This document shows positions 6,646 through 42,686 of a DNA stretch of 42,686 nt, piece after piece. A program made the position numbers and the translations under genes. Source of the DNA: Escherichia phage PGT2; the sequence record NC_047890.1; one strand, written 5' to 3'. Under the pieces are notes generated by a model. The model made no database searches. It was given only the letters and a program-made list of their open reading frames with translations, and was not told the DNA's origin. Every line of letters begins with the position of its first letter. Position 1 is the first letter of the stretch.

Positions 6646-7466
6646 TGAACTACCGTGATTCCGATTGGTATTTGGCTATAAAAGACCATCCGGTCGGTAC
6701 TCGGCTGCGTATGGCACACGATGGCTGCTCCACGAGTGAGGCACTCATCGTCACAAAACAGGATTCCGGGGTAAGCGCGTATTGCTTCCGTTGCAAATGG
6801 AACGGATTCGTTGGCGCGCCTCCTGAATCGTTGGCCCAAAAGTTAGAGCGTAAATCTCGTGAGAAGCTCGCCAGCAAGGTGATGAAGGATAGTAAGGCGT
6901 TACCATCCCCCAAGTGCGAAAACATCGCTGAGTGGCCGCTAGAAGCGCGGATTTGGCTCTATAAAGCTGGACTTAATAACCATGACATATCTGAAGCTGG
7001 TATTTATTATCATGGAGGCAGTAATCGTGTGGTCATCCCTATATTTGATGGTGACGCGCTGGTGTATTGGCAAGCCCGTGGATTTGACCCTGAAGCGCCT
7101 AAGTACCTCAATCCGTCGGTGGTGGACCGGACTGCTCTTGTCGCCAACTGGTACGGCTCTGAAAGATGCCTTGTTCTTACAGAGGACTGGCTATCAGGCT
7201 ACCGGGTACATCGGGCCACAGGCTTCCAAGTCTATGCCCTCCTTGGGACAACACTCACGGACGCAATCGCGGCCCAAATCGTCTACAACCGTGTACCAGT
7301 GGCCATATGGCTCGACCCGGATTCGGCGGGCCAGACTGCGGCGCGGAAGATTATTGCTAAACTCAGTGCGCTGAACCACCCGGTTAAAAACATCGTCACT
7401 GAGCGGGATCCTAAACTTTACAGTGACGCAGAAATCCGGGAGGTGTTACGATGCGACCCACAGTGA
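6645..7466 (+). CDS. DNA primase (zinc-binding and TOPRIM domains)
   Basis: Cys cluster HDGC...CFRC near the N-terminus; TOPRIM-like LVLTEDWLSGYR and IWLDPDSAGQTAARK; strong SD aggaggg. Confidence 0.8.
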   Translation: MNYRDSDWYLAIKDHPVGTRLRMAHDGCSTSEALIVTKQDSGVSAYCFRCKWNGFVGAPPESLAQKLERKSREKLASKVMKDSKALPSPKCENIAEWPLEARIWLYKAGLNNHDISEAGIYYHGGSNRVVIPIFDGDALVYWQARGFDPEAPKYLNPSVVDRTALVANWYGSERCLVLTEDWLSGYRVHRATGFQVYALLGTTLTDAIAAQIVYNRVPVAIWLDPDSAGQTAARKIIAKLSALNHPVKNIVTERDPKLYSDAEIREVLRCDPQ

Positions 7467-7852
7467 TGGAGAGTTGTTGCATCTGCCATACGCAGAAAGG
7501 TCCCTATAATCAGGCAGGCCGTGCAACATACAAGGGCCGGATGGTGGGGTTACACAGGCTTATCTTCTTTAAGGAGTTCGGTTACTGGCCGGAAGTTGTC
7601 CTGCACCTCTGCGACAACCAGCGCTGTATAAATCCTGAACATCTGGTAGGAGGTACACAGGCAGACAACATCCGAGATGCAGTAGAGAAAGGGCGGTGGG
7701 TAAGAAATTTCCCTAATAAGTTATCCGCAGACACTGTTCGGGCCATACGAAGCGCGGTAGGCACAAACAAGCAGATAGCACAACAGTTTAATATAGACCC
7801 GGCGCATGTAAGCCGTATCAAAAATGGTATTGCTTATAAGGAGGTCACATAA
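7451..7852 (+). CDS. HNH homing endonuclease
   Basis: HNH core LHRLIF...HLCDNQRCINPEHL...N with a C-terminal helix-turn-helix-like segment; sits between primase and helicase. Confidence 0.7.
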   Translation: MRPTVMESCCICHTQKGPYNQAGRATYKGRMVGLHRLIFFKEFGYWPEVVLHLCDNQRCINPEHLVGGTQADNIRDAVEKGRWVRNFPNKLSADTVRAIRSAVGTNKQIAQQFNIDPAHVSRIKNGIAYKEVT

Positions 7853-9996: not shown

Positions 9997-12389
9997 TGTC
10001 CTATGTAACGTTCGATTTGGAGACAACGGTCAAATCCTTGGCTAAACGCAAGGCCAGCCCGTTCCACCCGAACAATTTCATAGTGGCGATTGGTTGGAAA
10101 CGACAAAACTGCTCTGTTCAGGGTAGTTACAGTAAAACGGGCGAGCACCATCCCAATTGGTTCGAAGGTCTTTTGGCAGGTACTAAATTACTTGTCGGCC
10201 AGAATATCAAATTTGACATTCTCTATGCTATAACCCGGTCCGAATCGGCATACGCCGCTTGGATGAACTGGGTAGAGGCCGGAGGAAATGTTTGGGATTG
10301 CCAGCTTGCCGAGTATTTACTGCGAGGTCAGGAACAATCAGCCCACATGTTGTCGATGGATGAGATGGTCGAGGAGTACGGCGGGAACACGAAGGTGGAT
10401 GAAGTCAAAGCCATGTGGGAAGCAGGCTACGATACACCGGAGATTCCTGAAGACTTGCTGATGCGTTATCTCTGCGGTGAGACAAGGGATGATGGTACTC
10501 GCGTGTTCGGCGACATTGAGAACACCGAAGCAATCTTCCTCGGTCAATTGAAGAAGGCACGTAAGCGCGGCCACCTGAAGTCCATCATGCTTAACATGGG
10601 GAGCCTGTTGGCCTCCATAGAGATGGAAAAGAACGGTATGGCCGTTGACCTGAAACTGGGCTTAGAGCAAGCCGAGAAGTTGAAGGTAGCGTGCAACGAA
10701 CTCCGCGAGAAAATGCAGCAGTACCTGCCAAGTGACCTACCGTGTGAGTTTAACTGGGGTTCCGGGCACCACTTATCGGCCCTTATCTTCGGCGGCGCGA
10801 TTAAGTACAAGCAGAAAGCCGAGATTCTGGATGACGAAGGCAACAACGTTTACCCACAGATTAAGGCCGTAGGCTACGAGACAGTAACCGGGGACTTCGT
10901 GGTGCCGGGCCACGGTATCTCTGAAGAGCGTTTTCAGGAGATGGTTGAGGCCGGGAACATTGCCACGTACAAGGCCGGGAAGAAGAAGGGCCAGTTCCGG
11001 TCCAAGCAGGTTAACGTTGATGACCTGTCCCGTCCTAAGACGAAGATAATGGAGTTCCGGTACAACATGCCGGGGTTCACGGAGCCGGACCCGAAGTGGG
11101 AGACGAAGCACGAAGGCGTTTACGCCACTAATGCGGACGTCATTGAGGAATTAGGAACACGCGACGTACCGTTCCTGAAAGACCTCACCAAGCTCAACAA
11201 AATGGATAAAGACCTGACGACATACTATATCTGCGAAGACCCTAAGAAAGAGGGGATGTTCAAAGGTATGTTGACGCTGGTCGGCGATGACGGCATTATC
11301 CACGGCAGCATTAACCACACCTCCACAGTGACCGGGCGATTCTCTGCGAGCAACCCTAACCTCCAGAACATCCCCCGTGCGGACACTTCTGAAGTTAAGA
11401 AGCTGTTCATCTCGCGCTTCGGCGACGACGGCCAGATTATTCAGTCTGACTTCTCGTCTCTGGAGATTTACGTTCAGGCATTACTCACAGGTGACAAGCA
11501 ATTGCTGGCAGACCTGAAGAAAGGTCTGGACATGCACTGCGTTCGCGTCGCCAGTAAATTCGGGGTGCCCTATGAGGAAGCAGTCAAACGTTGTAAGAAG
11601 GATGTTGACGCGCCGGACTACAAGCTATGGAAGTCTCGCAGGACTGGATGTAAGGAATTTTCATTCCAACGAGCATACGGCGCTGGAGCGGCAGCAGTGG
11701 CGAACTCTACGGGGATGTCTATTGAAGACGTGCAGGACCTTATCAAGTTAGAGGACGAACGTTACCCGGAGATTGAACCATTCTATGCAAGAGTTACAGC
11801 AGCAATTAACGAAAGCCGAGTACCAACAAGTCTGTATGTACATCATCCAGAGATACGGGGACTGTCTGTCTGCATCGGCAAAGGATTTTATAGAACGCCT
11901 GATGGGAAGAAATACACTTACCGAGAGTACCCTGCTCCGGCTGGTTTTATCAAACGCGGGGGTGCACACGCCTCCTTCTCGCCTCCTGAAATTAAGAACT
12001 ACATTGTGCAGGGTACAGGTGGCGAGTGGGCGAAAGCTGCGATGTGGCTTGCAGTCCGCACATTCTATCGTTTCAACAACTTCGGAGGAAAGGCGCTCTT
12101 AGTGAATATGGTGCACGATGCGCAATACGTCGATGCTCACAATGACGTGCTGTTCGAAGCCTGCGTAGCGTTACATGCTGCAATGGAAGCGGCCAGCGAG
12201 TTCATGGAGTACCGATTCGATTGGCAGGTCGATGCCCCGGTCCCTTCAGAAACAACCTTTGGCCCAGCGATGTACTACGAGACTGGTGCCGACACCCTGC
12301 CGGGATTCGCCGAAGCAGTGCGTGCTGAACGTCTCAAAATCCGTAAGCTGTACATGAACGACTACCAACCATCATTCGAGGGTAATTAA
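9996..12389 (+). CDS. Family A DNA polymerase with 3'-5' exonuclease domain
   Basis: Exo I motif FDLETT; polymerase motif A DFSSLEIYV, motif B RTGCKEFSFQRAYG, motif C VHDA. Confidence 0.9.
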   Translation: MSYVTFDLETTVKSLAKRKASPFHPNNFIVAIGWKRQNCSVQGSYSKTGEHHPNWFEGLLAGTKLLVGQNIKFDILYAITRSESAYAAWMNWVEAGGNVWDCQLAEYLLRGQEQSAHMLSMDEMVEEYGGNTKVDEVKAMWEAGYDTPEIPEDLLMRYLCGETRDDGTRVFGDIENTEAIFLGQLKKARKRGHLKSIMLNMGSLLASIEMEKNGMAVDLKLGLEQAEKLKVACNELREKMQQYLPSDLPCEFNWGSGHHLSALIFGGAIKYKQKAEILDDEGNNVYPQIKAVGYETVTGDFVVPGHGISEERFQEMVEAGNIATYKAGKKKGQFRSKQVNVDDLSRPKTKIMEFRYNMPGFTEPDPKWETKHEGVYATNADVIEELGTRDVPFLKDLTKLNKMDKDLTTYYICEDPKKEGMFKGMLTLVGDDGIIHGSINHTSTVTGRFSASNPNLQNIPRADTSEVKKLFISRFGDDGQIIQSDFSSLEIYVQALLTGDKQLLADLKKGLDMHCVRVASKFGVPYEEAVKRCKKDVDAPDYKLWKSRRTGCKEFSFQRAYGAGAAAVANSTGMSIEDVQDLIKLEDERYPEIEPFYARVTAAINESRVPTSLYVHHPEIRGLSVCIGKGFYRTPDGKKYTYREYPAPAGFIKRGGAHASFSPPEIKNYIVQGTGGEWAKAAMWLAVRTFYRFNNFGGKALLVNMVHDAQYVDAHNDVLFEACVALHAAMEAASEFMEYRFDWQVDAPVPSETTFGPAMYYETGADTLPGFAEAVRAERLKIRKLYMNDYQPSFEGN

Positions 12390-12391
12390 TA

Positions 12392-13330
12392 ATGGCTAAG
12401 CAATTTTCCGTACTGAAGAAGAAAGAACTGCTCGTAGACCAGACCAAAGCAAGCACTGGTGGTGACTATACGCCGCCAGCGGAAGGTCTGGCCCGTGCCC
12501 GACTCGTCGCCTACGTCGAGGTCGGCAAGCATGAGAAGGTCAGTAAGCAATACGGCACCAAGGTCCAGAGCATGGTGCATCTGACCTTCGAACTGTCCGG
12601 TCCGAAGTGGGAGCCGAAGAAGCTGGATGATGGTACTCTGATTCCGCAGCGTATCACCCTGAAAGAGAACCTGTCCACTAACACCAAGGCGCGATTCTAC
12701 AAGCTGTTCCTGAAGCTCCGCGATGGTCGTGAGGACATTACTCACTTCGCCGAAATGCTGGGTGAAGCCTGCCTCATCCGTATCAAGCACCGTGAGTACG
12801 AGGTGGATGCTGGCGGTAAGAAAGAGAAGCGCGTTGCGGTCGATGTGTACTCTCCAGACAGTGGTTGGTCAATCACTCCTCCGTACATCCTGAAAGATAT
12901 TATGGATGAGAACGACGAACCGACTGGCGAGCAAGAGAAGAAGCACGTCACCGTCTCCGACCCGGTTAGTGACCTCCGCCTGTTCATCTGGGATTGCGCG
13001 GACAAAGAGCAGTGGGACAGCCTGTACATCGAGCCGGGTGACGGCGACCGCAGCAAGAACGTGTTCCAAGAACTGATTGTCAACGCGAAGAACTTTATCG
13101 GTTCCCCGGCTGAAGCAGCGGCACACGGCTCTGAATCTCTGGAGGCCATTCTGAAGGGTGGTAAGGGTTCAACCGAGCCTGCCACTGACGATGACGATGA
13201 TGATGGCTCAGAAGGCGTTGTAGAGGATAAGAGCAGCAAGAAAGCTACCTCTGTTGTGAAGAAGGTCGTTAAGAAGACGGTAGAGGCTGAAAAGCCTGCT
13301 GACGAAGATGACTTAGGGGATATTGACTAA
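12392..13330 (+). CDS. Hypothetical protein with acidic C-terminal tail; possible ssDNA-binding protein (T7 gp2.5-like)
   Basis: C-terminus DDDDDDGSEG...ADEDDLGDID; position between polymerase and exonuclease. No sequence-level match verified. Confidence 0.35.
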   Translation: MAKQFSVLKKKELLVDQTKASTGGDYTPPAEGLARARLVAYVEVGKHEKVSKQYGTKVQSMVHLTFELSGPKWEPKKLDDGTLIPQRITLKENLSTNTKARFYKLFLKLRDGREDITHFAEMLGEACLIRIKHREYEVDAGGKKEKRVAVDVYSPDSGWSITPPYILKDIMDENDEPTGEQEKKHVTVSDPVSDLRLFIWDCADKEQWDSLYIEPGDGDRSKNVFQELIVNAKNFIGSPAEAAAHGSESLEAILKGGKGSTEPATDDDDDDGSEGVVEDKSSKKATSVVKKVVKKTVEAEKPADEDDLGDID

Positions 13331-13331
13331 C

Positions 13332-14282
13332 ATGACAAAGTTCAAGCTGCCTAAAGACCTCAGTTCGATGGTGCAGCCTGAACCTGTTAGCATTGTCCCT
13401 CCCCAAGTTCCGGGGAGGGTCTGCCATGTTGATGCGGACTTCTTAGCTTACTTCGCCGCTGGCGGTGAGAATATGCCTATTAGCATATGCCGCCAAGTGG
13501 TTAAGGAACGCGTCGAGAAGTTCCGCGTCATGACAGGATCAGAATCTGTACTCCTGCACCTGACGGACAGCCGCTCAACAAAAGGCGACAGATACCTCGT
13601 AGGTGCTACCGTACCATATCAGGGTCAACGTCTCTCTGGTAAGAAACCCGGTAACTGGGCGGCTACCCGAGAGTATATCGAATCAGGTACTCATGGCCTC
13701 CCCATGAAGTTCTGGAAGACGAGGGAGGCGGATGATGGGGTCGCATATTGTGCAGAACGCAGTGGTGGGGTTGACGCTATATGCACAAAAGATAAGGACT
13801 TTCGGATGTTCTCCGGGCTGCATTGCTTATGGGATACGTTCCAATTGGTGCAGGTTAATCCCGGTGATTTTCGTGTGGATGGTCCTGCTCCTGCCAAGGG
13901 CAAAGTACAGAAGTATTACGGCCACTTCTTCTTCTGGCAGCAGATGTTGTACGGAGATACTGCGGATAACATCCCCGGTATACATGGGATTGGCGAGGCC
14001 ACTGCCGCCCAACTTCTGCTTGATTGTACTAATAACGCCGAAGCATTCGATGTTGTCGCTGATATTTACAGGAAAAAGAAACGGGAGGGGTGGTCTGATT
14101 ATATGGTTGAGCAGGCTGCGCTTCTATGGATGCGAACTGACCGACACGCAGACCTGCTGGATTTCCTCAAGATATTCCCGGAAGATGAGGAAATTATCAT
14201 TGCTGCGGAGAAGATGAGGCAGCGGGTTCTCGAAGATAAGGCTACCTTAGAGAGCATACTCAAAGGTTACTCACATAAATAG
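13332..14282 (+). CDS. 5'-3' exonuclease / flap endonuclease (T7 gp6-like)
   Basis: H3TH-type motif GDTADNIPGIHGIGEATAAQLL; ORF track start 13323 is a TTG, ATG at 13332 has better SD spacing. Confidence 0.8.
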   Translation: MTKFKLPKDLSSMVQPEPVSIVPPQVPGRVCHVDADFLAYFAAGGENMPISICRQVVKERVEKFRVMTGSESVLLHLTDSRSTKGDRYLVGATVPYQGQRLSGKKPGNWAATREYIESGTHGLPMKFWKTREADDGVAYCAERSGGVDAICTKDKDFRMFSGLHCLWDTFQLVQVNPGDFRVDGPAPAKGKVQKYYGHFFFWQQMLYGDTADNIPGIHGIGEATAAQLLLDCTNNAEAFDVVADIYRKKKREGWSDYMVEQAALLWMRTDRHADLLDFLKIFPEDEEIIIAAEKMRQRVLEDKATLESILKGYSHK

Positions 14283-14295
14283 AGGGTATTCCGTG

Positions 14296-14775
14296 ATGAT
14301 GAAATTAACCCAATCCCTAATTCCCGTAGTAAGACGCAAGATGGCAGCAGAGCAAGGGAACCTGTGCCTATTATGCAGGGAACATATGGAAGATAAGCAA
14401 ATGGTGCTGGACCACGACCATGATACAGGCCACTGTCGCGGGGTTCTCCACAGAGGCTGTAATGCCATGCTCGGACATCTGGAAAACAACCGTGCCCGTC
14501 ACCTGCTGAAAGACGACGACAAGTTCGCTACGTTCCTCTCGAACATCATGGAATACATCAACATGGACTGCTCGCACCAGCCACTGCACAGCACTCATAA
14601 GAACACTGCGGAGAAGAAAGCGGCATCTTATGAGAAGTCCCGGAAGAAGTTAGTAGCTTCCCGGATTGCAGCCAACCCAACCGCCGCCGACGCTATCAAA
14701 GCGAAGGAAAAAGCATTGCGTAAAGTACGCGCCGACCGTAACCGTCCATCTGTTAAATCAAGCAAAGACATTTGA
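14296..14775 (+). CDS. Recombination endonuclease VII (Holliday junction resolvase)
   Basis: Zinc/catalytic motif CLLCREH...LDHDHDTGHCRGVLHRGCN, typical of T4 endo VII family. Confidence 0.8.
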   Translation: MMKLTQSLIPVVRRKMAAEQGNLCLLCREHMEDKQMVLDHDHDTGHCRGVLHRGCNAMLGHLENNRARHLLKDDDKFATFLSNIMEYINMDCSHQPLHSTHKNTAEKKAASYEKSRKKLVASRIAANPTAADAIKAKEKALRKVRADRNRPSVKSSKDI

Positions 14776-14782
14776 GGATATT

Positions 14783-15772
14783 ATGCCAAAGACTAATCTC
14801 ATTGCACTATTCACCAAGGAACAGCACCAGAACATCCTCGGCAAGCACCCCGACAACACGGCTGCTGCCAAGGCGTACAACGAACTGCTGGGCTGGAATA
14901 GTCCGGTAGTCTACCGCCAAGTGGTGGCGTACTGGCGCAAGATTTATATCGACCACGGTGGTAAGAAAGGCGAGGCTATTCGTGAAGAGAAACAAGCTGT
15001 TAAGCTGGTTCAGCCATCACCAAGTGACGATATTGGTAACACTGACGTCCCTGACGTGTGTCGCCGTATCCTTGTGGTTGGTGATTTACATGCTCCTTAT
15101 ACTCATCCCGACGCTATTGCTTTCCTTCGCCATGTCCGAGACAGTTATGTTCCTGACATGGTTGTTCAGGTAGGCGATGAGACGGACGGCCACGCAATCA
15201 GCTTCCACGACTCGGACCCGAATCTGGATAGCGCCGGGGTCGAATTAGAGAAAGCCAAAGCCGTACTGGAGCAATTACATGACCTGTTCCCGAACCTTCT
15301 GGTATGTGACTCCAATCACGGCAGTCTTGTGTATCGCCGCGCAAAGGCTCACGGTCTACCAGTGCAATTTATCAAGAAGTACCGTGATATTCTTTTCCCT
15401 GAGCACGGTGCTAAGAAGTGGTCATGGGCTGACGCATGGGTACTCAATACCCCGCTTGGCCAAGTTCGATTCCAACATCAAGTGTCGGGCGACTTCATGC
15501 TTAACGCCAGCCATGAGAGAACCTCGCTTGTCTTGGGTCACGAGCATGGTCGCTTTGAAGTGCAGTACGCAGCAAGCTCAACAGCTTTGTACTTTGGTGC
15601 ATACGCTGGGTGTCTGATTGACCGTAAGTCTCTGGCCTTTGCCTACGGCAAGTTGCACCGCAAGAAACCAATCCTCGGCGTGATGGTAATCACCGATGGT
15701 TGTCCGCAGTTAATCCCTATGCTGATGGATGAAAACGGGAGGTGGTGTGCGCGAGATAAAACCAAAGGTTGA
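14783..15772 (+). CDS. Calcineurin-like metallophosphoesterase
   Basis: Motifs VVGDLHAPY, VQVGDETDGH, CDSNHG, GHEH; in-frame ATG 14783 with upstream SD (ORF track start 14666 overlaps the endo VII gene). Confidence 0.65.
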   Translation: MPKTNLIALFTKEQHQNILGKHPDNTAAAKAYNELLGWNSPVVYRQVVAYWRKIYIDHGGKKGEAIREEKQAVKLVQPSPSDDIGNTDVPDVCRRILVVGDLHAPYTHPDAIAFLRHVRDSYVPDMVVQVGDETDGHAISFHDSDPNLDSAGVELEKAKAVLEQLHDLFPNLLVCDSNHGSLVYRRAKAHGLPVQFIKKYRDILFPEHGAKKWSWADAWVLNTPLGQVRFQHQVSGDFMLNASHERTSLVLGHEHGRFEVQYAASSTALYFGAYAGCLIDRKSLAFAYGKLHRKKPILGVMVITDGCPQLIPMLMDENGRWCARDKTKG

Positions 15773-15794
15773 TACAGGGAAGAGATTCCGGGGT

Positions 15795-16292
15795 ATGGTG
15801 GTGTACACTTGGGACTGCCCTTACTGTGGTAGAGAGTTTGAGGCTATACGGACTAAGCTCTTCAATACAAGTAAGCGAGGTGGTGCAGGGCATTGTGGGT
15901 GTCAGACTAAGGTTCGACAGTCACAAAGAAATGCAGGGCGTACACCGCCTAATAAGCTGGACGATTTGACAGCCTCCGCTAACAAGGTGTGGCAGTACAG
16001 TACCAAACTAGGCCGGAGCATTACTAAAGAGGATGCCAAAGCCTTAGTAAGTGCAAACTGTTACTACTGCGGGGCAGCGCCCAGCACCTACCGAGAGATT
16101 GGTGGAGGTCGCTGGTCGCGCAAGTCCGAAATACCCACAAACGGAATCGACAGAAAGGATTCATCTGTAGGTTATCACGTACATAATTGTGTACCTTGCT
16201 GCCCTACGTGCAACTACATGAAGTCCGATATGCACCACGACGACTTCTTGGAGTTGTGTAGTAAAATAGCCGACCGTTGGGCCGGTCGCTAA
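15795..16292 (+). CDS. HNH endonuclease (second free-standing copy)
   Basis: N-terminal CPYCG zinc motif and C-terminal HVHNCVPCCPTCNYMKSD HNH motif; start could also be ATG 15729. Confidence 0.65.
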   Translation: MVVYTWDCPYCGREFEAIRTKLFNTSKRGGAGHCGCQTKVRQSQRNAGRTPPNKLDDLTASANKVWQYSTKLGRSITKEDAKALVSANCYYCGAAPSTYREIGGGRWSRKSEIPTNGIDRKDSSVGYHVHNCVPCCPTCNYMKSDMHHDDFLELCSKIADRWAGR

Positions 16293-16332
16293 TTATACCG
16301 GGCACGGACGCCCATTCAATTGAGGATAATAT

Positions 16333-17052
16333 ATGTTGTTAATGCTCTCTGGCGCGATTGGCGCTGGCAAAGATACCTTCGGTGAGTTCCTGTACGACTC
16401 ATTCGACAAGTTCGGCTACAGCGTGGAAGTGGTGAAGTTTGCCGACCCCATTCGTGAAGCTGCATTTAAGCTCGGATTCAATCCAGATGACCGGGCAACC
16501 AAGGAAGTCCCTGCAATACGCCATTATAAACTCTCAGAACTTGATGAGGCCATTTTTACTACTCATACCTGCCTGACACCTTACGAGCGCCGAATGGTCG
16601 CTGTACGAGTTCACCAGAGATTAATTAACATTCGCAAGGAGAAACATGATGGCATCTACAAGCCTGTCGTCAGTACGCGAGAATTTATGCAGGTCGTCGG
16701 TGGGACTGTACGAGACGCTAAAGAAGATTATTACATCCAGCACATGCTTCTCAATACACCAGAATCACGCGTTAACATCTGCACTGATACTCGGTTCATC
16801 AACGAGCAGCGAATTGGGGATTATTCGGTCTACGTTGAGCGCCCAAACAACCCGTTGGCGGTTCATACCCGCGACGCGTCGGAAGCAGCACAAGCGTTGC
16901 TCCGGGGGGCGGCGAAGAAAGTAATCCTGAACAACAGCACTCTGGATAATCTGGCTGAAGAAGCCGATTACGTGGCTACAACATTAATTTCAAAAGGGTA
17001 TTGTGATGACGCAGTTAAAGACGCAGGCGGAACTGGAATCTTTATCGAGTGA
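16333..17052 (+). CDS. P-loop deoxynucleoside monophosphate kinase-like protein
   Basis: N-terminal P-loop MLLMLSGAIGAGKDT resembles T4 dNMP kinase MKLIFLSGVKRSGKDT; strong SD tgagga. Confidence 0.6.
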   Translation: MLLMLSGAIGAGKDTFGEFLYDSFDKFGYSVEVVKFADPIREAAFKLGFNPDDRATKEVPAIRHYKLSELDEAIFTTHTCLTPYERRMVAVRVHQRLINIRKEKHDGIYKPVVSTREFMQVVGGTVRDAKEDYYIQHMLLNTPESRVNICTDTRFINEQRIGDYSVYVERPNNPLAVHTRDASEAAQALLRGAAKKVILNNSTLDNLAEEADYVATTLISKGYCDDAVKDAGGTGIFIE

Positions 17053-18976
17053 GCGCGGTCTTGCCAAGCTGATGGCCGAGTGTGAGCAGGCTGAATCAGC
17101 GGGGCGTGCATCCGGCGCGTTTTATGCCAAGCAGTTGTTAGAGCGTTTTGTTAACCGTATGGCCGAACGTATTGACCACGAGATGGCGAATCCGGGTGCT
17201 GGCCGCGCGAAAGCGCATAAGAAACTGGTCGCTGTGTTTGACTCCAAAGTCACTGCGTTTATTTCTGTATCAACCACATTGAACATGCTGATGGTCAACG
17301 AGCAGACACCGGGCACCAGCCTTAGTCGCGCCCTCGGCAATGCAATGTATAACGAACTGTTCTGTACCACATTCGACGATGCCAACCCGGACCTGTTTCA
17401 CACCATCTGCAAGGACTTGGATAAGCGCCAGAGCAAATCCAGCCGCCACCGCATGACGGTACTGAAGAATCAGGCAGCGAAGAAGGGTATCGCGTGGGAG
17501 AACTGGACCGTCACCGAAATCCTTCAGGTCGGTGAGTGGTGTCTGGATAATCTGGTGTCAGTTGGTCTGTGCGAAACGCATACCGAGGTGTCTCGCGGTA
17601 AGGCGAAGATGTACGTGGAACTGTCCGACGAGGCGCTGGGAATGATTGAGGATACCAAACGTCTGGTGTCCTTCTTCCGGCCCCAGCGCCTCCCGTTCGT
17701 AGAGAAGCCTCTGGACTGGACCGGGATTGTTGGTGGTGGCTACCATACTGCTCGTATGCAGAGTACGATGCCTCGTTGCATCAAAGCCAGCCCGACCCAG
17801 ATGGATGTACTCATAAAGCACCGTGACGACTACAAGGATACGGTGGTGGCGTGCATTAACACTCTGCAATCGGTAGAGTGGCGTATCAACAAGCGTATTC
17901 TGGAAGTGCAGCAGCAGATGTTCCGAGGCTTTGAGCCGAAGAACAAGCCTGATGCTCTGGAGTGTCATAGCAAGGACGTTGAAGAGTGGACCGAGGCAGA
18001 TAAATCTCTACACAGCCACTGGAAGAAGGAAATGGCTCGCTGGTACACAGAGCAGCGTGCAGAGCGTTATGCCGCTTCACGACATGCCTACACGTTGTCA
18101 GTGGCACGAGAGTTCGCTGACTACCCGCGTATCTGGTTCATGTACTTCGCCGACTGGCGCGGGCGTTATTACCCGGCCACCACAGGCATCTCGCCGCAGG
18201 GGACCGACATCTCTAAATCCATGCTGGAGTTCGCCAATGGCAAGCCCATCTCTGACCCAATCGCAGAACAGTTCTTCTTCCTCCTTGGTTCAACTAAATT
18301 CGGATTCGACAAAGGCTCTATATCCGAACGAGTTCAGTGGGTTCACAAGAATCACGACCTTATCTTGGCGTGTGCCGACGAACCGCTACTACATACTGAT
18401 TTCTGGTACAGAGAAGCAGATAAGAAGACCCGCTACCAATTTCTGGCATGGTGTTTTGAATATGCTGAATACACGCGGTTCCCAGCTGGATTTGTATCAC
18501 GACTTCCGGTGTCTCTTGATGGCACATGTAATGGCCTACAACACTATTCGGCGATGCTACGAGATTCGGTTGGTGCTAAGGCTACCAACCTGTTACCTGC
18601 TAACCGACCAAACGATATTTACGCGCAAGTCGCAGGCGTTGTCACCAACCTTCTTGAAAGCATGTCACCTGCCGACTTCCCGGCACTGACACGCGAATCT
18701 AAGCCTCTCAGCGTCTATGAGGTGGACTTCTTCCGTAGGGCATGGTTACACCACGGTATCAGCCGTAGCCTCGTTAAACGGTGCGTTATGACGTTACCTT
18801 ACGGGTCCAAGAAGTTCAGCATGGGTCGCTTCATCAAAGGCGACTACATGATGGACATTCACCCGGAAGAGTTCGACACCGACGACTACACCGACGCAAA
18901 GTATGTTCCCGCCAGACCAGAGTTCGGTGACCTCGATTTAGAGCAGGTCAATCACTCCGAATACTTCTTCCTGTAG
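17006..18976 (+). CDS. T7-like single-subunit RNA polymerase, apparently lacking the C-terminal ~190 aa (motif C and C-terminus)
   Basis: PLDWTGIVGGGY, DWRGRYY...PQGTD, FLAWCFEYA, LDGTCNGLQHYSAMLRD (motif A) and VMTLPYGSKKF (motif B) align with T7 RNAP; the ORF stops about 50 residues after motif B. Confidence 0.85.
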   Translation: MTQLKTQAELESLSSERGLAKLMAECEQAESAGRASGAFYAKQLLERFVNRMAERIDHEMANPGAGRAKAHKKLVAVFDSKVTAFISVSTTLNMLMVNEQTPGTSLSRALGNAMYNELFCTTFDDANPDLFHTICKDLDKRQSKSSRHRMTVLKNQAAKKGIAWENWTVTEILQVGEWCLDNLVSVGLCETHTEVSRGKAKMYVELSDEALGMIEDTKRLVSFFRPQRLPFVEKPLDWTGIVGGGYHTARMQSTMPRCIKASPTQMDVLIKHRDDYKDTVVACINTLQSVEWRINKRILEVQQQMFRGFEPKNKPDALECHSKDVEEWTEADKSLHSHWKKEMARWYTEQRAERYAASRHAYTLSVAREFADYPRIWFMYFADWRGRYYPATTGISPQGTDISKSMLEFANGKPISDPIAEQFFFLLGSTKFGFDKGSISERVQWVHKNHDLILACADEPLLHTDFWYREADKKTRYQFLAWCFEYAEYTRFPAGFVSRLPVSLDGTCNGLQHYSAMLRDSVGAKATNLLPANRPNDIYAQVAGVVTNLLESMSPADFPALTRESKPLSVYEVDFFRRAWLHHGISRSLVKRCVMTLPYGSKKFSMGRFIKGDYMMDIHPEEFDTDDYTDAKYVPARPEFGDLDLEQVNHSEYFFL

Positions 18977-35753: not shown

Positions 35754-38516
35754 ATGGCTATTACGTTTTATGCTACCAACAACTTCACTGGTGATGGTAC
35801 TACCGTAAACTGGAATATTAACTTCGCAGACGGTTATATCGACATCACCACCGTGAAGGCGCGGTATCTGGATAATACCGGGAGCTACGTTGACATCGCT
35901 ATTTCAAGCGTGGCAGGAAACGTAGTAACCATTTCCCCGGCTGTGGCGGACGGTCAGGAGTTCCAAATCTATCGTGATACAGAGAAGCGGTTCCCGCTGG
36001 TGGACTTCTCTGACGGTGCAATCCTCAACGAGACTAACCTTGACACGCTGGCTACTCAAGCTGTGATGGTGTCTGCTGAGGCATTCGACCAGTCTAACAA
36101 CGGTGTGCGTATCGCAGGTGATTCCTTGGTTGTTGCACAGGGTATCGACGCCAAGGCACAGGAAGCTCTGGACAACTCCGAGGCTGCTGTAGCTACAGCG
36201 AACGGTATCGACGGTAAAGCGCAGACGGCATTGAATACCGCCGCCGCCGCTGTCGCCACGGCTAATGCTGCCACATCTACTGCTGCTGGTGCTGTATCTA
36301 CGGCCAACACCGCACTGTCTACTGCCCACGATGCCGCCGATGACGCAGCTACCGCTATCACTACCGCTAACGGCGCTGTGATTACGGCCAATGCTGCAAC
36401 CACTACGGCCAACGCCGCTAGTGCTGCCGCCTCTGCTGCAACGACTACTGCGAACAGTGCTGCAAACGACGCTGCTACTGCTGTGTCTACTGCGGGTACG
36501 GCCTTGTCTACTGCGAACACCGCATCTACCAACGCCTCTACCGCTGTGTCCACGGCTAACGGCGCTAAGGCTACTGCTGAGGGTATCGAGGCTAAAGCGG
36601 ATTCTGCTTTGGCAGCCTCTGCTACCGCTGTGTCCACAGCTAACTCAGCCGAGGCTACGGCCAACGCTATCGACGGTAAGGCTACGGACGCATTAGACAC
36701 TGCCGACTCCGCTGTGGCTACGGCTAACGCTGCTGTTTCTACGGCTAACTCTGCTACTGCTACGGCTAATGCTGCCTCTTCTACTGCGAGTTCGGCTGCC
36801 TCTGACGCCAGTACCGCCTTGAGCACAGCTAATGCTATTGACGCAAAGGCACAGACTGCTTTGGATAATACCACGGCTCTGGATGCGGCCACCATGAAGA
36901 AAGCCGCCAACTTATCTGATATTGCGGATAAGGCGGCTGCATGGCTTAACGTCCGTCCTATTGGCTCCACGCCATTGGCAGGCGACCCGGTAGGGGATTA
37001 CGATGCTGTTACTAAGCGTTGGGTAGAGAACCTGATTAACACAGGTACTGTCGGTCCAACCATGAACGGGGTGATGAACTTCGGCGTCGGTGACTTCCAT
37101 CTCCGGGATAGCCGCGCGTACATCCAGCCTTATGAGGTTGTCTCTGACGGTCAGTTACTGAACCGCGCTGACTGGCCTGAACTTTGGGCCTACGCCCAAA
37201 TGCTGTCGCCTATAACGGATGCAGCTTGGTTGGCAGACCCTCTCAAGCGCGGCGCTTACTCTACCGGAAACGGAACCACTACCTTCCGAGTACCGGATAG
37301 GAACGGTGTTCAGTCAGGCTCTGTAAGGGCGCTTTTTGGGCGTGGTGACGGTGGGAACTCTTCTATCGGCAGTACCATCATGGAGTCCTTCGTACCGAAT
37401 ATCACGGCTACGTTAAATATGCACGGTGCTGGTCCCGCATCAGAACCTGCCGCTGGTACTAACGTGGCAGGATTTGGTGGTGCCTTGGTTGCTACGGGAG
37501 AGGCTCTCCCGAGATACCTGCGTGGGGTTACTCTGTTATCTGCTGGTGGTAACTCCTATGGTGGAGCTACCTTCGATGCCTCCCGTTCCAGTGCTGCTTA
37601 TGGTCGTGGTGGTCTGACTACGGATGAGGTTCTGCCGCGTAACTTCACTGGTGTATGGGTAATTCGTGCATCTGGCGGCTTCGTAGCGGCTAATACGCAG
37701 TGGCAGGTTATAAACCAAGATGCGACTAGGCCCGGTAACGGTACTGCCGTCTTAGGTGGTAATATTGTATCTGAGTACCGCGTTGGTGGTGCCTTGGAGG
37801 GTACAGCAAACTTCCGTATGGCGGGTACTATCGATGGTTCGTATGGCGCGCGCATTGCTGTTTATAATGCCACATCTTTAAATGGCGCCAGCTTCGATTT
37901 TACAGAGCACGGGAACATAGAGACTCCCCTTGGTAGGGCTATTGTTATAGGCAACTATGGTATAGGTTCGCAAGCAGATGCTATACCTACTTCGAGGGAT
38001 AACGCATTTATCTCTAACGCTGATAGTAATAGTTCTTGGTCTGCTTCTAACGGGGGTGGCTTTCAAATTACATATGCAGCTAACCGTATCGTCCAGTTCT
38101 GGGTAAGTCAAGGTGGTACTACGGCTTATTTCCGTGCTAATAGCACAGACAGTAACCCCCAACGACCGAAGTCTGCATCTCCTTGGGTCACACTCCAGAA
38201 TGCTGGTACTTCGGACGCTAATGTAAAAACCGTCCTCGGTGACTTAGACTTATCTATACCGTTGAGTAATATCAACGCACTGGAGTTTAAGAAATTCCGC
38301 TACAACAAGGATGGTGAGGATGGCCCGGTTCGACGGGGCATTATCGCGCAGCAGGCGCAGAATGTGGACCCGGAGTACGTACATTCTGCGGATAAGTCCG
38401 GGGTTATGACTCTTGATAGTAACCCGCTGCTGTTGGATGCTCTAGCTGCTGTCAAAGCACTATCTGCTAAAGTGGCCGCTCTGGAAGAGCGTATTGATGA
38501 ACTAACTTCTCAGTAA
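35754..38516 (+). CDS. Tail fiber protein: T7 gp17-like N-terminal adaptor, Ala/Thr/Ser-rich repeat shaft, C-terminal intramolecular chaperone domain
   Basis: N-terminus LVDFSDGAILNETNLDTLATQAVMVSAEA parallels T7 gp17 [29 protein letters not shown]; C-terminus GIIAQQAQ...LAAVKALSAKVAALEERIDELT is chaperone-like; ORF track start 35742 is a TTG. Confidence 0.8.
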   Translation: MAITFYATNNFTGDGTTVNWNINFADGYIDITTVKARYLDNTGSYVDIAISSVAGNVVTISPAVADGQEFQIYRDTEKRFPLVDFSDGAILNETNLDTLATQAVMVSAEAFDQSNNGVRIAGDSLVVAQGIDAKAQEALDNSEAAVATANGIDGKAQTALNTAAAAVATANAATSTAAGAVSTANTALSTAHDAADDAATAITTANGAVITANAATTTANAASAAASAATTTANSAANDAATAVSTAGTALSTANTASTNASTAVSTANGAKATAEGIEAKADSALAASATAVSTANSAEATANAIDGKATDALDTADSAVATANAAVSTANSATATANAASSTASSAASDASTALSTANAIDAKAQTALDNTTALDAATMKKAANLSDIADKAAAWLNVRPIGSTPLAGDPVGDYDAVTKRWVENLINTGTVGPTMNGVMNFGVGDFHLRDSRAYIQPYEVVSDGQLLNRADWPELWAYAQMLSPITDAAWLADPLKRGAYSTGNGTTTFRVPDRNGVQSGSVRALFGRGDGGNSSIGSTIMESFVPNITATLNMHGAGPASEPAAGTNVAGFGGALVATGEALPRYLRGVTLLSAGGNSYGGATFDASRSSAAYGRGGLTTDEVLPRNFTGVWVIRASGGFVAANTQWQVINQDATRPGNGTAVLGGNIVSEYRVGGALEGTANFRMAGTIDGSYGARIAVYNATSLNGASFDFTEHGNIETPLGRAIVIGNYGIGSQADAIPTSRDNAFISNADSNSSWSASNGGGFQITYAANRIVQFWVSQGGTTAYFRANSTDSNPQRPKSASPWVTLQNAGTSDANVKTVLGDLDLSIPLSNINALEFKKFRYNKDGEDGPVRRGIIAQQAQNVDPEYVHSADKSGVMTLDSNPLLLDALAAVKALSAKVAALEERIDELTSQ
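36100..36900. repeat. Imperfect tandem codon repeats (STAN/ATAN units) inside the tail fiber gene
   Basis: About 16 copies of nCyACnGCnAAy (encoding x-T-A-N) at roughly 7-, 11- and 14-residue spacing. Confidence 0.7.
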
Positions 38517-42426: not shown

Positions 42427-42686
42427 TCCAACACAAATGAGGTCGCGTTTCCCCCGTAGGCCCGGCCTTCTGGATGGCTAAATGGCTGGATGGATGGATG
42501 GCTGGACGGCTAGACGTTTAGACGGCTAAATGGCCAAATGACCGTAAAAAGGGCCGTGGGCACTGATAGGGTCAATCGGGCTGTAAGCCACGCCAACCGG
42601 GGTTTCCGCACATTACTTTATAAGAGAGCTTGTAAGGTGTCTGGCGGCGATCCGTCTACGACGGGAGAAGGAAAGAGACGTGGGGT
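42427..42686. repeat. Right direct terminal repeat (DTR), 260 bp
   Basis: Exact copy of 1-260. Confidence 0.9.

Follow-up and report, generated by a model that had tools for sequence, protein, structure and literature searches.

The window analysed here is the whole 42,686-nt stretch of Escherichia phage PGT2 (NC_047890.1), and all coordinates are its positions. An open reading frame (ORF) ending at 16292, just behind the gene for a metallophosphoesterase (MPE), is likely a free-standing homing endonuclease gene that encodes a small PacI-type His-Me-finger nuclease and has the 3' end of the MPE gene as its home site. This reading is drawn from sequence comparison. The gene is precisely present or absent among close relatives, it occupies one home site in differing genomic backgrounds, its putative target is disrupted in the carrier, and neither an intron nor an intein is involved. 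A preliminary description of the window had proposed an inserted HNH endonuclease gene here on the strength of a CPYCG motif and the string HVHNCVPCCPTCNYMKSD. Both are present in an ORF that is intact from ATG 15795 to its end at 16292, and Pfam and PHROG matches confirm its placement between the MPE and dNMP kinase genes. The features on which the argument depends are as follows.

14783-15772, + strand: MPE gene, host gene of the insertion (Pfam Metallophos; PHROG 221, E 7e-108; start from homology to phiKT gp10).

15729-16292, + strand: PacI-type HNH endonuclease ORF (alternative starts ATG 15729, GTG 15747 and ATG 15795; PHROG 1035, E 2e-25).

16333-17052, + strand: dNMP kinase gene, the right-hand neighbour (PHROG 139, E 2.4e-26; weak Pfam DNMK match; collinear with phiKT gp11).

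15740-16274, + strand: inserted element of 535 bp, absent from phiKT (phiKT BLAST blocks, junction alignments and a tail comparison of 13 phages).

15740-15772, + strand: element-borne substitute MPE C-terminus and stop, RWCARDKTKG-stop (tail comparison of 13 phages).

16275-16292, + strand: resident MPE tail CGT TGG GCC GGT CGC TAA, which is also the last five codons and stop of the nuclease ORF (aligns with phiKT GRWVGR-stop).

The window, a complete Autographiviridae genome, has as its nearest relative Escherichia phage phiKT (genus Ermolevavirus), with aligned blocks of about 86-97% nucleotide identity; PGT2 and phiKT were isolated from one horse-faeces source (PMC5773715). The window MPE is 96.6% identical to phiKT gp10 at the amino-acid level. 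As the preliminary description had supposed, the nuclease gene is an insertion, since phiKT is without exactly these 535-541 bp and has both flanks intact. BLAST homology to phiKT ends at window 15733 and resumes at 16275, leaving 541 bp in the window versus about 6 bp in phiKT; donor-like sequence may start at about 15727. The insertion point falls between a Gly codon and CGT-TGG (Arg-Trp) of the MPE tail (…G/RWVGR-stop), and the 535 bp are 1 modulo 3. The MPE frame stops inside the element, at 15770-15772, and the nuclease occupies another frame, an arrangement that speaks against carriage by an intron or intein. A search of the window for the intact phiKT junction 20-mer gives no match, even with up to three mismatches. 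By eye, no palindrome stands out in the candidate target.

The insertion has exchanged the ends of two reading frames. The MPE ends …NEEG RWVGR-stop in phiKT and …DENG RWCARDKTKG-stop in the window, where the nuclease ORF ends …IAD RWAGR-stop. Junction and tail alignments with phiKT identify the last 18 nt of the nuclease ORF as the resident MPE tail and stop, read by the nuclease in its original frame; the nuclease ORF has no stop of its own and terminates on the resident MPE stop codon. In the comparison of 13 phages, all five alleles that carry the nuclease gene have an MPE ending in GRWC(A/N)R… and a stop. Seven of the eight phages without it end (G/N)RWV… or GNWV…, and the remaining one, KP34, ends RWC. 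The nuclease ORF of Drulisvirus phages ends GRWVGRSK-stop, the exact MPE tail of gene-less Drulisvirus phages (Ou2, IK_ECO1). The tails are thus specific to each lineage (…GR-stop in the window and phiKT, …GRSK-stop in Drulisvirus), and the right boundary is host sequence in each.

Two further observations concern this site. In Klebsiella phage KP34, positions 1590-2140 hold an unrelated HNH_3/AP2-type gene in the same slot behind an MPE with an RWC-type tail, and about 45 bp at the left end of that gene (TGGTGT…AGAG…CTGATAC.GG.AGAG) are common to the PacI-like element; the KP34 slot suggests that nuclease cassettes are swapped within one landing site. In two metagenomic Drulisvirus-like IMG/VR contigs (L043, 3088-3128; L023, 12876-12916), the MPE tail unit GGTCGTTGGGTT is tandemly triplicated to give GRWVGRWVGRWVGRTK followed by the stop. 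This triplication sits exactly at the proposed target and insertion point; its origin might be slippage or imprecise repair of a break, or it might be an escape allele.

The gene is sporadic. Close homologues of the nuclease (68-93% amino-acid identity) were found in only 13 phage records, while MPE homologues number 631 records, 395 of them with at least 60% amino-acid identity. The carriers comprise eleven Drulisvirus-like Klebsiella or E. coli phages and Dickeya phage BF25/12 (Stompvirus). In every carrier inspected, the nuclease gene lies directly after the MPE 3' end or overlaps it, while the gene that follows it varies: dNMP kinase in the window, a small hypothetical or single-strand-binding protein gene in Drulisvirus, and polynucleotide kinase in BF25/12. 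Across five lineages (Ermolevavirus, Drulisvirus, Stompvirus and two metagenomic ones), the gene occupies this one MPE 3' site while the downstream genes differ. Among IMG/VR contigs, 2 contain the exact left junction and 31 have the intact 17-mer target GGTCGTTGGGTYGGTCG. The more divergent metagenomic homologues (56-61% identity) follow an MPE-like gene that itself comes after endonuclease VII; their arrangement is intergenic, with the native MPE tail intact and the nuclease ending …SRF-stop. Synteny comparison with relatives, which the preliminary description had called for, therefore finds the gene missing from phiKT and from most MPE carriers, and the conserved presence in all relatives that would have spoken against its proposal is not seen.

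Within Drulisvirus, gene-carrying phages are a minority, and the MPE 3' halves of phages with and without the gene are nearly identical (55-60 of 60 nt per sliding window; VLCpiA1j and Ou2 form a presence/absence pair). Across genera, the window and Drulisvirus phage VLCpiA1j share 90% amino-acid identity in the nuclease and 81% in the MPE, versus 31% in the DNA polymerase and 26% in the 5'-3' exonuclease. These observations bear on the idea that the gene is ancestral and non-mobile, has descended vertically with the MPE gene and has been lost repeatedly. Such descent would suit a gene that always adjoins the MPE gene and whose divergent homologues adjoin divergent MPE genes. It is nonetheless very unlikely, given that gene-less alleles have a clean native tail with no scar, that the right junction is the tail specific to the host lineage, that two genera with such distant DNA polymerases have nucleases 90% identical to each other, and that carriage varies among Drulisvirus phages even where their MPE flanks are almost the same.

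The nuclease gene is by sequence comparison under strong purifying selection. Against the Drulisvirus copies, the ratio of nonsynonymous to synonymous divergence (dN/dS) is 0.03-0.07 at a dS of about 1.2, values which indicate that the protein is functional and that the split is not recent. This raises a second alternative, in which the gene is a domesticated accessory nuclease that benefits the phage (by cutting competitor phages, giving marker exclusion with no propagation of itself, or by degrading host DNA as a rare-cutting restriction enzyme does) and is no longer primarily a selfish homing element. Such low dN/dS despite so high a dS is what would be expected of it; moreover, the nearest solved relative of the nuclease, described below, is a restriction enzyme, and viral restriction has been suggested, speculatively, as the role of that enzyme's viral homologues (PMC5714182). 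Yet phiKT lacks the gene, as do about 97% of the phages whose MPE is closely related. Homing predicts that the gene will keep strictly to one site within one gene even where the neighbours change from lineage to lineage, as it does here; a gene of general use to the phage would not be tied down in this way. The recognition site of the restriction enzyme is not avoided in the window (3 occurrences versus 0.39 expected). Domestication of this kind appears improbable to us.

Pfam and NCBIfam scans of the ORF returned only sub-threshold zinc-ribbon noise, and no Pfam HNH model (PF01844, PF13392 and others) matches the nuclease at E values up to 1. Nearly all homologues have no precomputed Pfam domain. 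Because these scans were uninformative, the family was assigned from a PDB sequence search, a homologue alignment and structure prediction. The sole solved structure found by sequence was PacI (phmmer E 3e-4; query residues 86-165 on PacI 60-139), which was also the top structural match; similarity in sequence and structure is significant over most of the length, at 23% identity. Nuclease residues are numbered from ATG 15795, PacI residue roles were taken from reviews and the numbering of the phmmer alignment, and conservation was scored in 71 homologues. Invariant among these are C89, G117, I118, D119, R120, Y127, N131, V133, C135, C136, N140 and K143; nearly invariant are C11, G12, C34, G35, C36, Y91, C92, G93, N116, G126, C132, P134, C139 and F151. 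PacI counterparts of the conserved residues are C63/C66, D92, R93, Y100, N104, C109/C112, N113 and K116. Every residue that is both invariant in the family and equivalent to a PacI active-site residue is retained in the window nuclease. The conserved residues group into two regions of the ORF.

15816-15902, + strand: N-terminal zinc motif C8-x2-C11 … C34-x-C36 (C11, G12, C34, G35 and C36 at least 90% conserved in the 71 homologues).

16059-16223, + strand: beta-beta-alpha-metal nuclease core with flanking CxxC pairs (C89, C92, N116-G-I-D119-R120, G126-Y127, N131, C135, C136, C139, N140 and K143).

An AlphaFold model built on the alignment (mean predicted local distance difference test score, pLDDT, of 86) contains the beta-beta-alpha unit, together with a beta hairpin at residues 3-18, and so has the beta-beta-alpha-metal fold by which the His-Me finger superfamily is recognised. 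The expected Asp/Asn metal ligands are the invariant D119 and N140, which align with PacI D92 and N113, themselves assigned as ligands from the alignment. PacI holds a single metal ion with one Asp and one Asn (PMC4081073). The position of the catalytic His is instead occupied by invariant R120 ('IDR'), the same exception that defines the PacI group, and Y127, a loop Tyr in place of His, aligns with PacI Y100 within a core of the form 'DR…GY…N…C..CN..K'. PacI does without the usual catalytic His, using a loop Tyr as base or nucleophile, and its Cys4 zinc sites are structural (PMC5714182, PMC3384342, PMC4081073); the replacement of His by Tyr is described in two of these accounts (PMC5714182, PMC4081073). 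Two candidate Cys4 zinc sites are conserved in the nuclease, C8/C11/C34/C36 and C89/C92/C136/C139, and the second aligns with PacI C63/C66/C109/C112. The PacI sequence match, the invariant residues and the beta-beta-alpha model together assign the predicted nuclease to the PacI-type members of the His-Me finger superfamily; the term 'HNH' applies to it only broadly, as the first H is missing.

The motifs named in the preliminary description fared unequally. CPYCG does partner the conserved CGC at C34/C36, forming the N-terminal zinc motif, and membership of the HNH/His-Me-finger superfamily holds, with the proviso that this is the PacI subtype without a catalytic His. The string HVHNCVPCCPTCNYMKSD, cited as the HNH motif, does contain the conserved N131, C135/C136, C139, N140 and K143. 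Its 'HVH' histidines, though, are variable (H128 and H130 belong to HIH, HWD or HLY in homologues) and no Pfam HNH model matches, and the catalytic core begins before it, at NGIDR (D119-R120), and includes Y127. The PacI site TTAATTAA was considered as a shared specificity and dropped. It occurs three times in the window (16621, 20823 and 31434) versus 0.39 times expected from shuffles, an excess that is probably due to chance and unrelated to the nuclease.

The family assignment bears on two other readings. GenBank annotations of homologues and the label of PHROG 1035 would make the protein an endonuclease VII-type junction resolvase; the PHROG 1035 match (E 2e-25) carries that name, as do several Drulisvirus records. 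There is, however, no match of the nuclease to Pfam Endonuclease_7 (PF02945), its best sequence and structure match is PacI, and a genuine gene of this type lies elsewhere in the window:

14293-14775: Endonuclease_7 gene (Pfam E 4e-15; conserved in phiKT).

With no Endonuclease_7 match and a genuine gene nearby, the label looks wrong, and a resolvase is the explanation to which we give the least credence. The gene might alternatively be a decaying, inactive remnant of a homing endonuclease gene, a view in keeping with an apparently old transfer (dS of about 1.2) and a missing canonical catalytic His. Against this, the ORF is unbroken and none of the family-invariant residues has been lost, dN/dS is low, and the absence of the His is the norm of the family, as in active PacI. 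Decay is thus also highly improbable.

Where translation of the predicted nuclease begins can be narrowed to three candidates. The frame is open from 15726, and the product would measure 187 amino acids from ATG 15729 or 181 from GTG 15747, within an overall range of 165-187. GTG 15747 lies 4 nt 3' of GGGAGG, is conserved in Drulisvirus homologues and is the start of a database homologue (P0001); recoding of the Arg codon from CGT to AGG makes the GGAGG element upstream of it. ATG 15795 lies 23 nt past the MPE stop. The overlap with the 3' end of the MPE gene that was initially described accordingly holds for starts 15729 and 15747 and fails for ATG 15795. The conserved part of the protein starts at about W6-D-C-P-Y-C-G, and an N-terminal strand found in more distant relatives is missing in the close homologues. 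We retain all three as candidates. In the surrounding region (14200-17200), no sigma-70-like promoter site was found on the + strand and hairpins occur on the minus strand only. RNA folding of the start region (15715-15825) is no better than that of shuffled sequence (z = 0.09), which leaves structure-based translational control unsupported, and no Rfam family, intron families included, matches at 15300-16700.

Exchange between lineages appears to extend beyond the nuclease. The whole MPE gene seems to have been exchanged between the genera Ermolevavirus and Drulisvirus. Measured against Drulisvirus, synonymous divergence (pS) of the window MPE gene reaches saturation over the 5' half, at about 0.8, and drops to about 0.5 over the 3' half; against phiKT it is 0.02 in codons 79-159 and 0.47-0.67 in the 3' half. 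One stretch of the gene stands out.

15230-15620, + strand: MPE patch diverging from phiKT and slightly nearer Drulisvirus, a possible co-conversion tract (sliding identity, synonymous divergence).

Identity to phiKT in this patch is 77-88%, versus 99-100% on either side, and at about 15350-15600 the window is nearer Drulisvirus than phiKT. About 350 bp past the right end of the insertion, a separate short patch within dNMP kinase (16625-16775) has 69-80% identity to phiKT, versus 95-100% around it. Recombination tracts associated with the nuclease gene would fit these data; because the divergence pattern is patchy, we take co-conversion as suggestive and not decisive.

Several points weigh against a homing endonuclease gene. 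The 100 bp just upstream of the insertion are 99% phiKT-like and the divergent patch lies farther off, so a simple co-conversion gradient beside the insertion was rejected. A dS of about 1.2 to the Drulisvirus copies is a large synonymous divergence, which speaks for a transfer that is not recent and leaves present-day activity conjectural. Purifying selection as strong as this would be expected equally whether the gene serves the phage or only itself. Cleavage, the target site and the inheritance of the nuclease and its close homologues are predictions from sequence, the start codon is one of three candidates, and neither a structured RNA nor a promoter of its own was found in the regions scanned. 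Furthermore, tests of whether Skunavirus nuclease genes exclude a phage without them included a PacI-like gene, and a strong effect is reported in the available part of that account for two I-HmuI-like enzymes only (PMC12724721).

If the gene is a homing endonuclease gene, as we favour, its propagation can be sketched. During mixed infection, the enzyme would cut gene-less MPE alleles at or near the intact tail, at about GAAGGT/CGTTGGGTCGGTCG, and repair of the break from the gene-carrying allele would copy the gene together with some flanking MPE sequence. A carrier genome would be immune, as the insertion appears to split the target sequence. Catalysis probably follows PacI, with D119 and N140 holding one divalent metal ion and Y127 acting as base or nucleophile in place of His, and the two Cys4 zinc sites are probably structural, as in PacI. 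The nuclease is probably expressed when the nucleotide-metabolism operon is read through, with its translation coupled to that of the MPE gene, as suggested by the lack of a promoter-like site on the + strand nearby and of special RNA structure at the start. Divergent homologues and KP34 show an intergenic arrangement from which the in-gene one was probably derived, through a right-hand crossover immediately 5' of the recipient CGTTGGGT that would have fused the nuclease ORF to the resident tail.

A more ambitious version holds that these properties jointly make up a distinct lifestyle for a free-standing homing gene inside a coding sequence with no intron or intein. The element would bring its host gene a replacement C-terminus and stop and end its own ORF on the displaced tail. 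The MPE tail would be a shared landing slot, KP34 HNH_3 gene included; the MPE 3' half would have travelled between Autographiviridae genera through repeated homing (MPE 81% identical, DNA polymerase 31%); and a Tyr-dependent PacI-type site, possibly in a dimer, would serve a homing enzyme. With all parts taken together, we regard this version as doubtful.

The preliminary description had also counted two HNH genes and read them as active homing at more than one locus. The other is the following.

7451-7852, + strand: HNH gene (HNH_3 and helix-turn-helix, HTH) between primase and helicase, polymorphic with respect to phiKT.

phiKT has no HNH gene at the primase-helicase site. Its gp06 (phiKT 7357-7814), located after the DNA polymerase gene, is a 45%-identical paralogue of the window HNH_3 gene and is missing at window 12296-12392. 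With the MPE site, three differences in nuclease-gene presence or absence separate these phages from the same source, and the claim of homing at several loci fits the data. The three polymorphisms support recent mobility at several loci, as judged from sequence, though they are not proof of current activity.

Elsewhere, the window carries an exact direct terminal repeat of 260 bp (1-260 and 42427-42686) and is a circular permutation of the phiKT GenBank record, window 1 being phiKT 37842. Mosaicism relative to phiKT is seen at 13342-13924, where the 5'-3' exonuclease gene has 64-79% identity over its first half, and at 37355-38478, where the tail-fibre gene encodes a C-terminal part essentially unrelated to that of phiKT; these two regions agree with the 'nine regions of low homology' described in PGT2 (PMC5773715). 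The RNA polymerase ORF (17003-18976) encodes 657 amino acids and has an in-frame loss of 167 amino acids present in phiKT gp12 (phiKT about 13788-14288). The gap junction is at about 18897/18898 with no clear repeat at the ends of the deletion; the missing part holds the motif-C-like 'AMIHDDYGTH', and the C-terminal …HSEYFFL-stop is retained. Either the gap is an assembly error in a 454-based draft or the polymerase gene is defective.

These findings have a few practical consequences. Homologues of the nuclease are labelled 'endonuclease VII' or 'hypothetical protein', and no Pfam or NCBIfam model covers it. To our knowledge, PacI-type Tyr-dependent HNH enzymes have hardly been characterised as homing endonucleases, and PGT2 and phiKT, three nuclease-gene loci apart, are a usable pair for studying such homing. 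Homing by the nuclease may explain local mosaicism around the MPE gene in phages developed for Klebsiella and E. coli therapy. The general picture of phage homing endonucleases is unchanged by this gene.

T4-like and T7-like phages provide well-known examples of free-standing homing endonuclease genes. SegF, SegG, MobE, F-TslI and F-CphI involve no intron or intein, adjoin a conserved target gene, are sporadic and co-convert flanking markers; in their carriers, the target is disrupted or altered. These are GIY-YIG, canonical HNH or EndoVII-motif proteins and their genes are mostly intergenic, in contrast to the present insertion, which lies inside the last codons of the host gene and has two ORFs exchanging tails. 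MobE of Aeromonas phage Aeh1 splits nrdA into two genes ('fractured genes'), again with no intron or intein and with the host gene still functional. In the present case the host gene loses only its 5-8 terminal codons and gains a tail encoded by the element, and there is no split protein to reassemble.

PacI itself (PDB 3ldy/3m7k; His-Me finger group 20, Jablonska et al. 2017) is similar in size, at 142 amino acids compared with 165-187. Zinc-binding Cys motifs flanking a beta-beta-alpha-metal site are common to both proteins, as are 'DR' for 'DH', the loop Tyr (Y127 = Y100), the Asn (N140 = N113) and the Lys (K143 = K116). PacI is a chromosomal restriction enzyme acting as a homodimer on the palindrome TTAATTAA, whereas the window nuclease is encoded by a phage gene tied to one insertion site, and its target is presumably longer and non-palindromic.

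A further parallel is with the free-standing PacI-like HNH genes of lactococcal Skunavirus phages (e.g. Phi93_03), which are interpreted as homing endonuclease genes (PMC12724721). They belong to the same protein family (tblastn match in phage phi93, 32.5% identity). They too are free-standing and variably present, with one insertion location per phage group, and differ in their host phage family, their target gene and their position in the morphogenesis module (PMC12724721). The swap of coding-sequence tails is a feature of the present case; the available part of PMC12724721 makes no mention of it for the Skunavirus genes. As PacI-like Skunavirus genes are already catalogued as homing endonucleases, the nuclease gene of PGT2 belongs to a known kind, the free-standing PacI-like homing endonuclease genes. 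It is modestly unusual within that kind for the tail swap inside its host gene, a slot held in common with the KP34 HNH_3 gene, and a protein that matches no Pfam or NCBIfam family.

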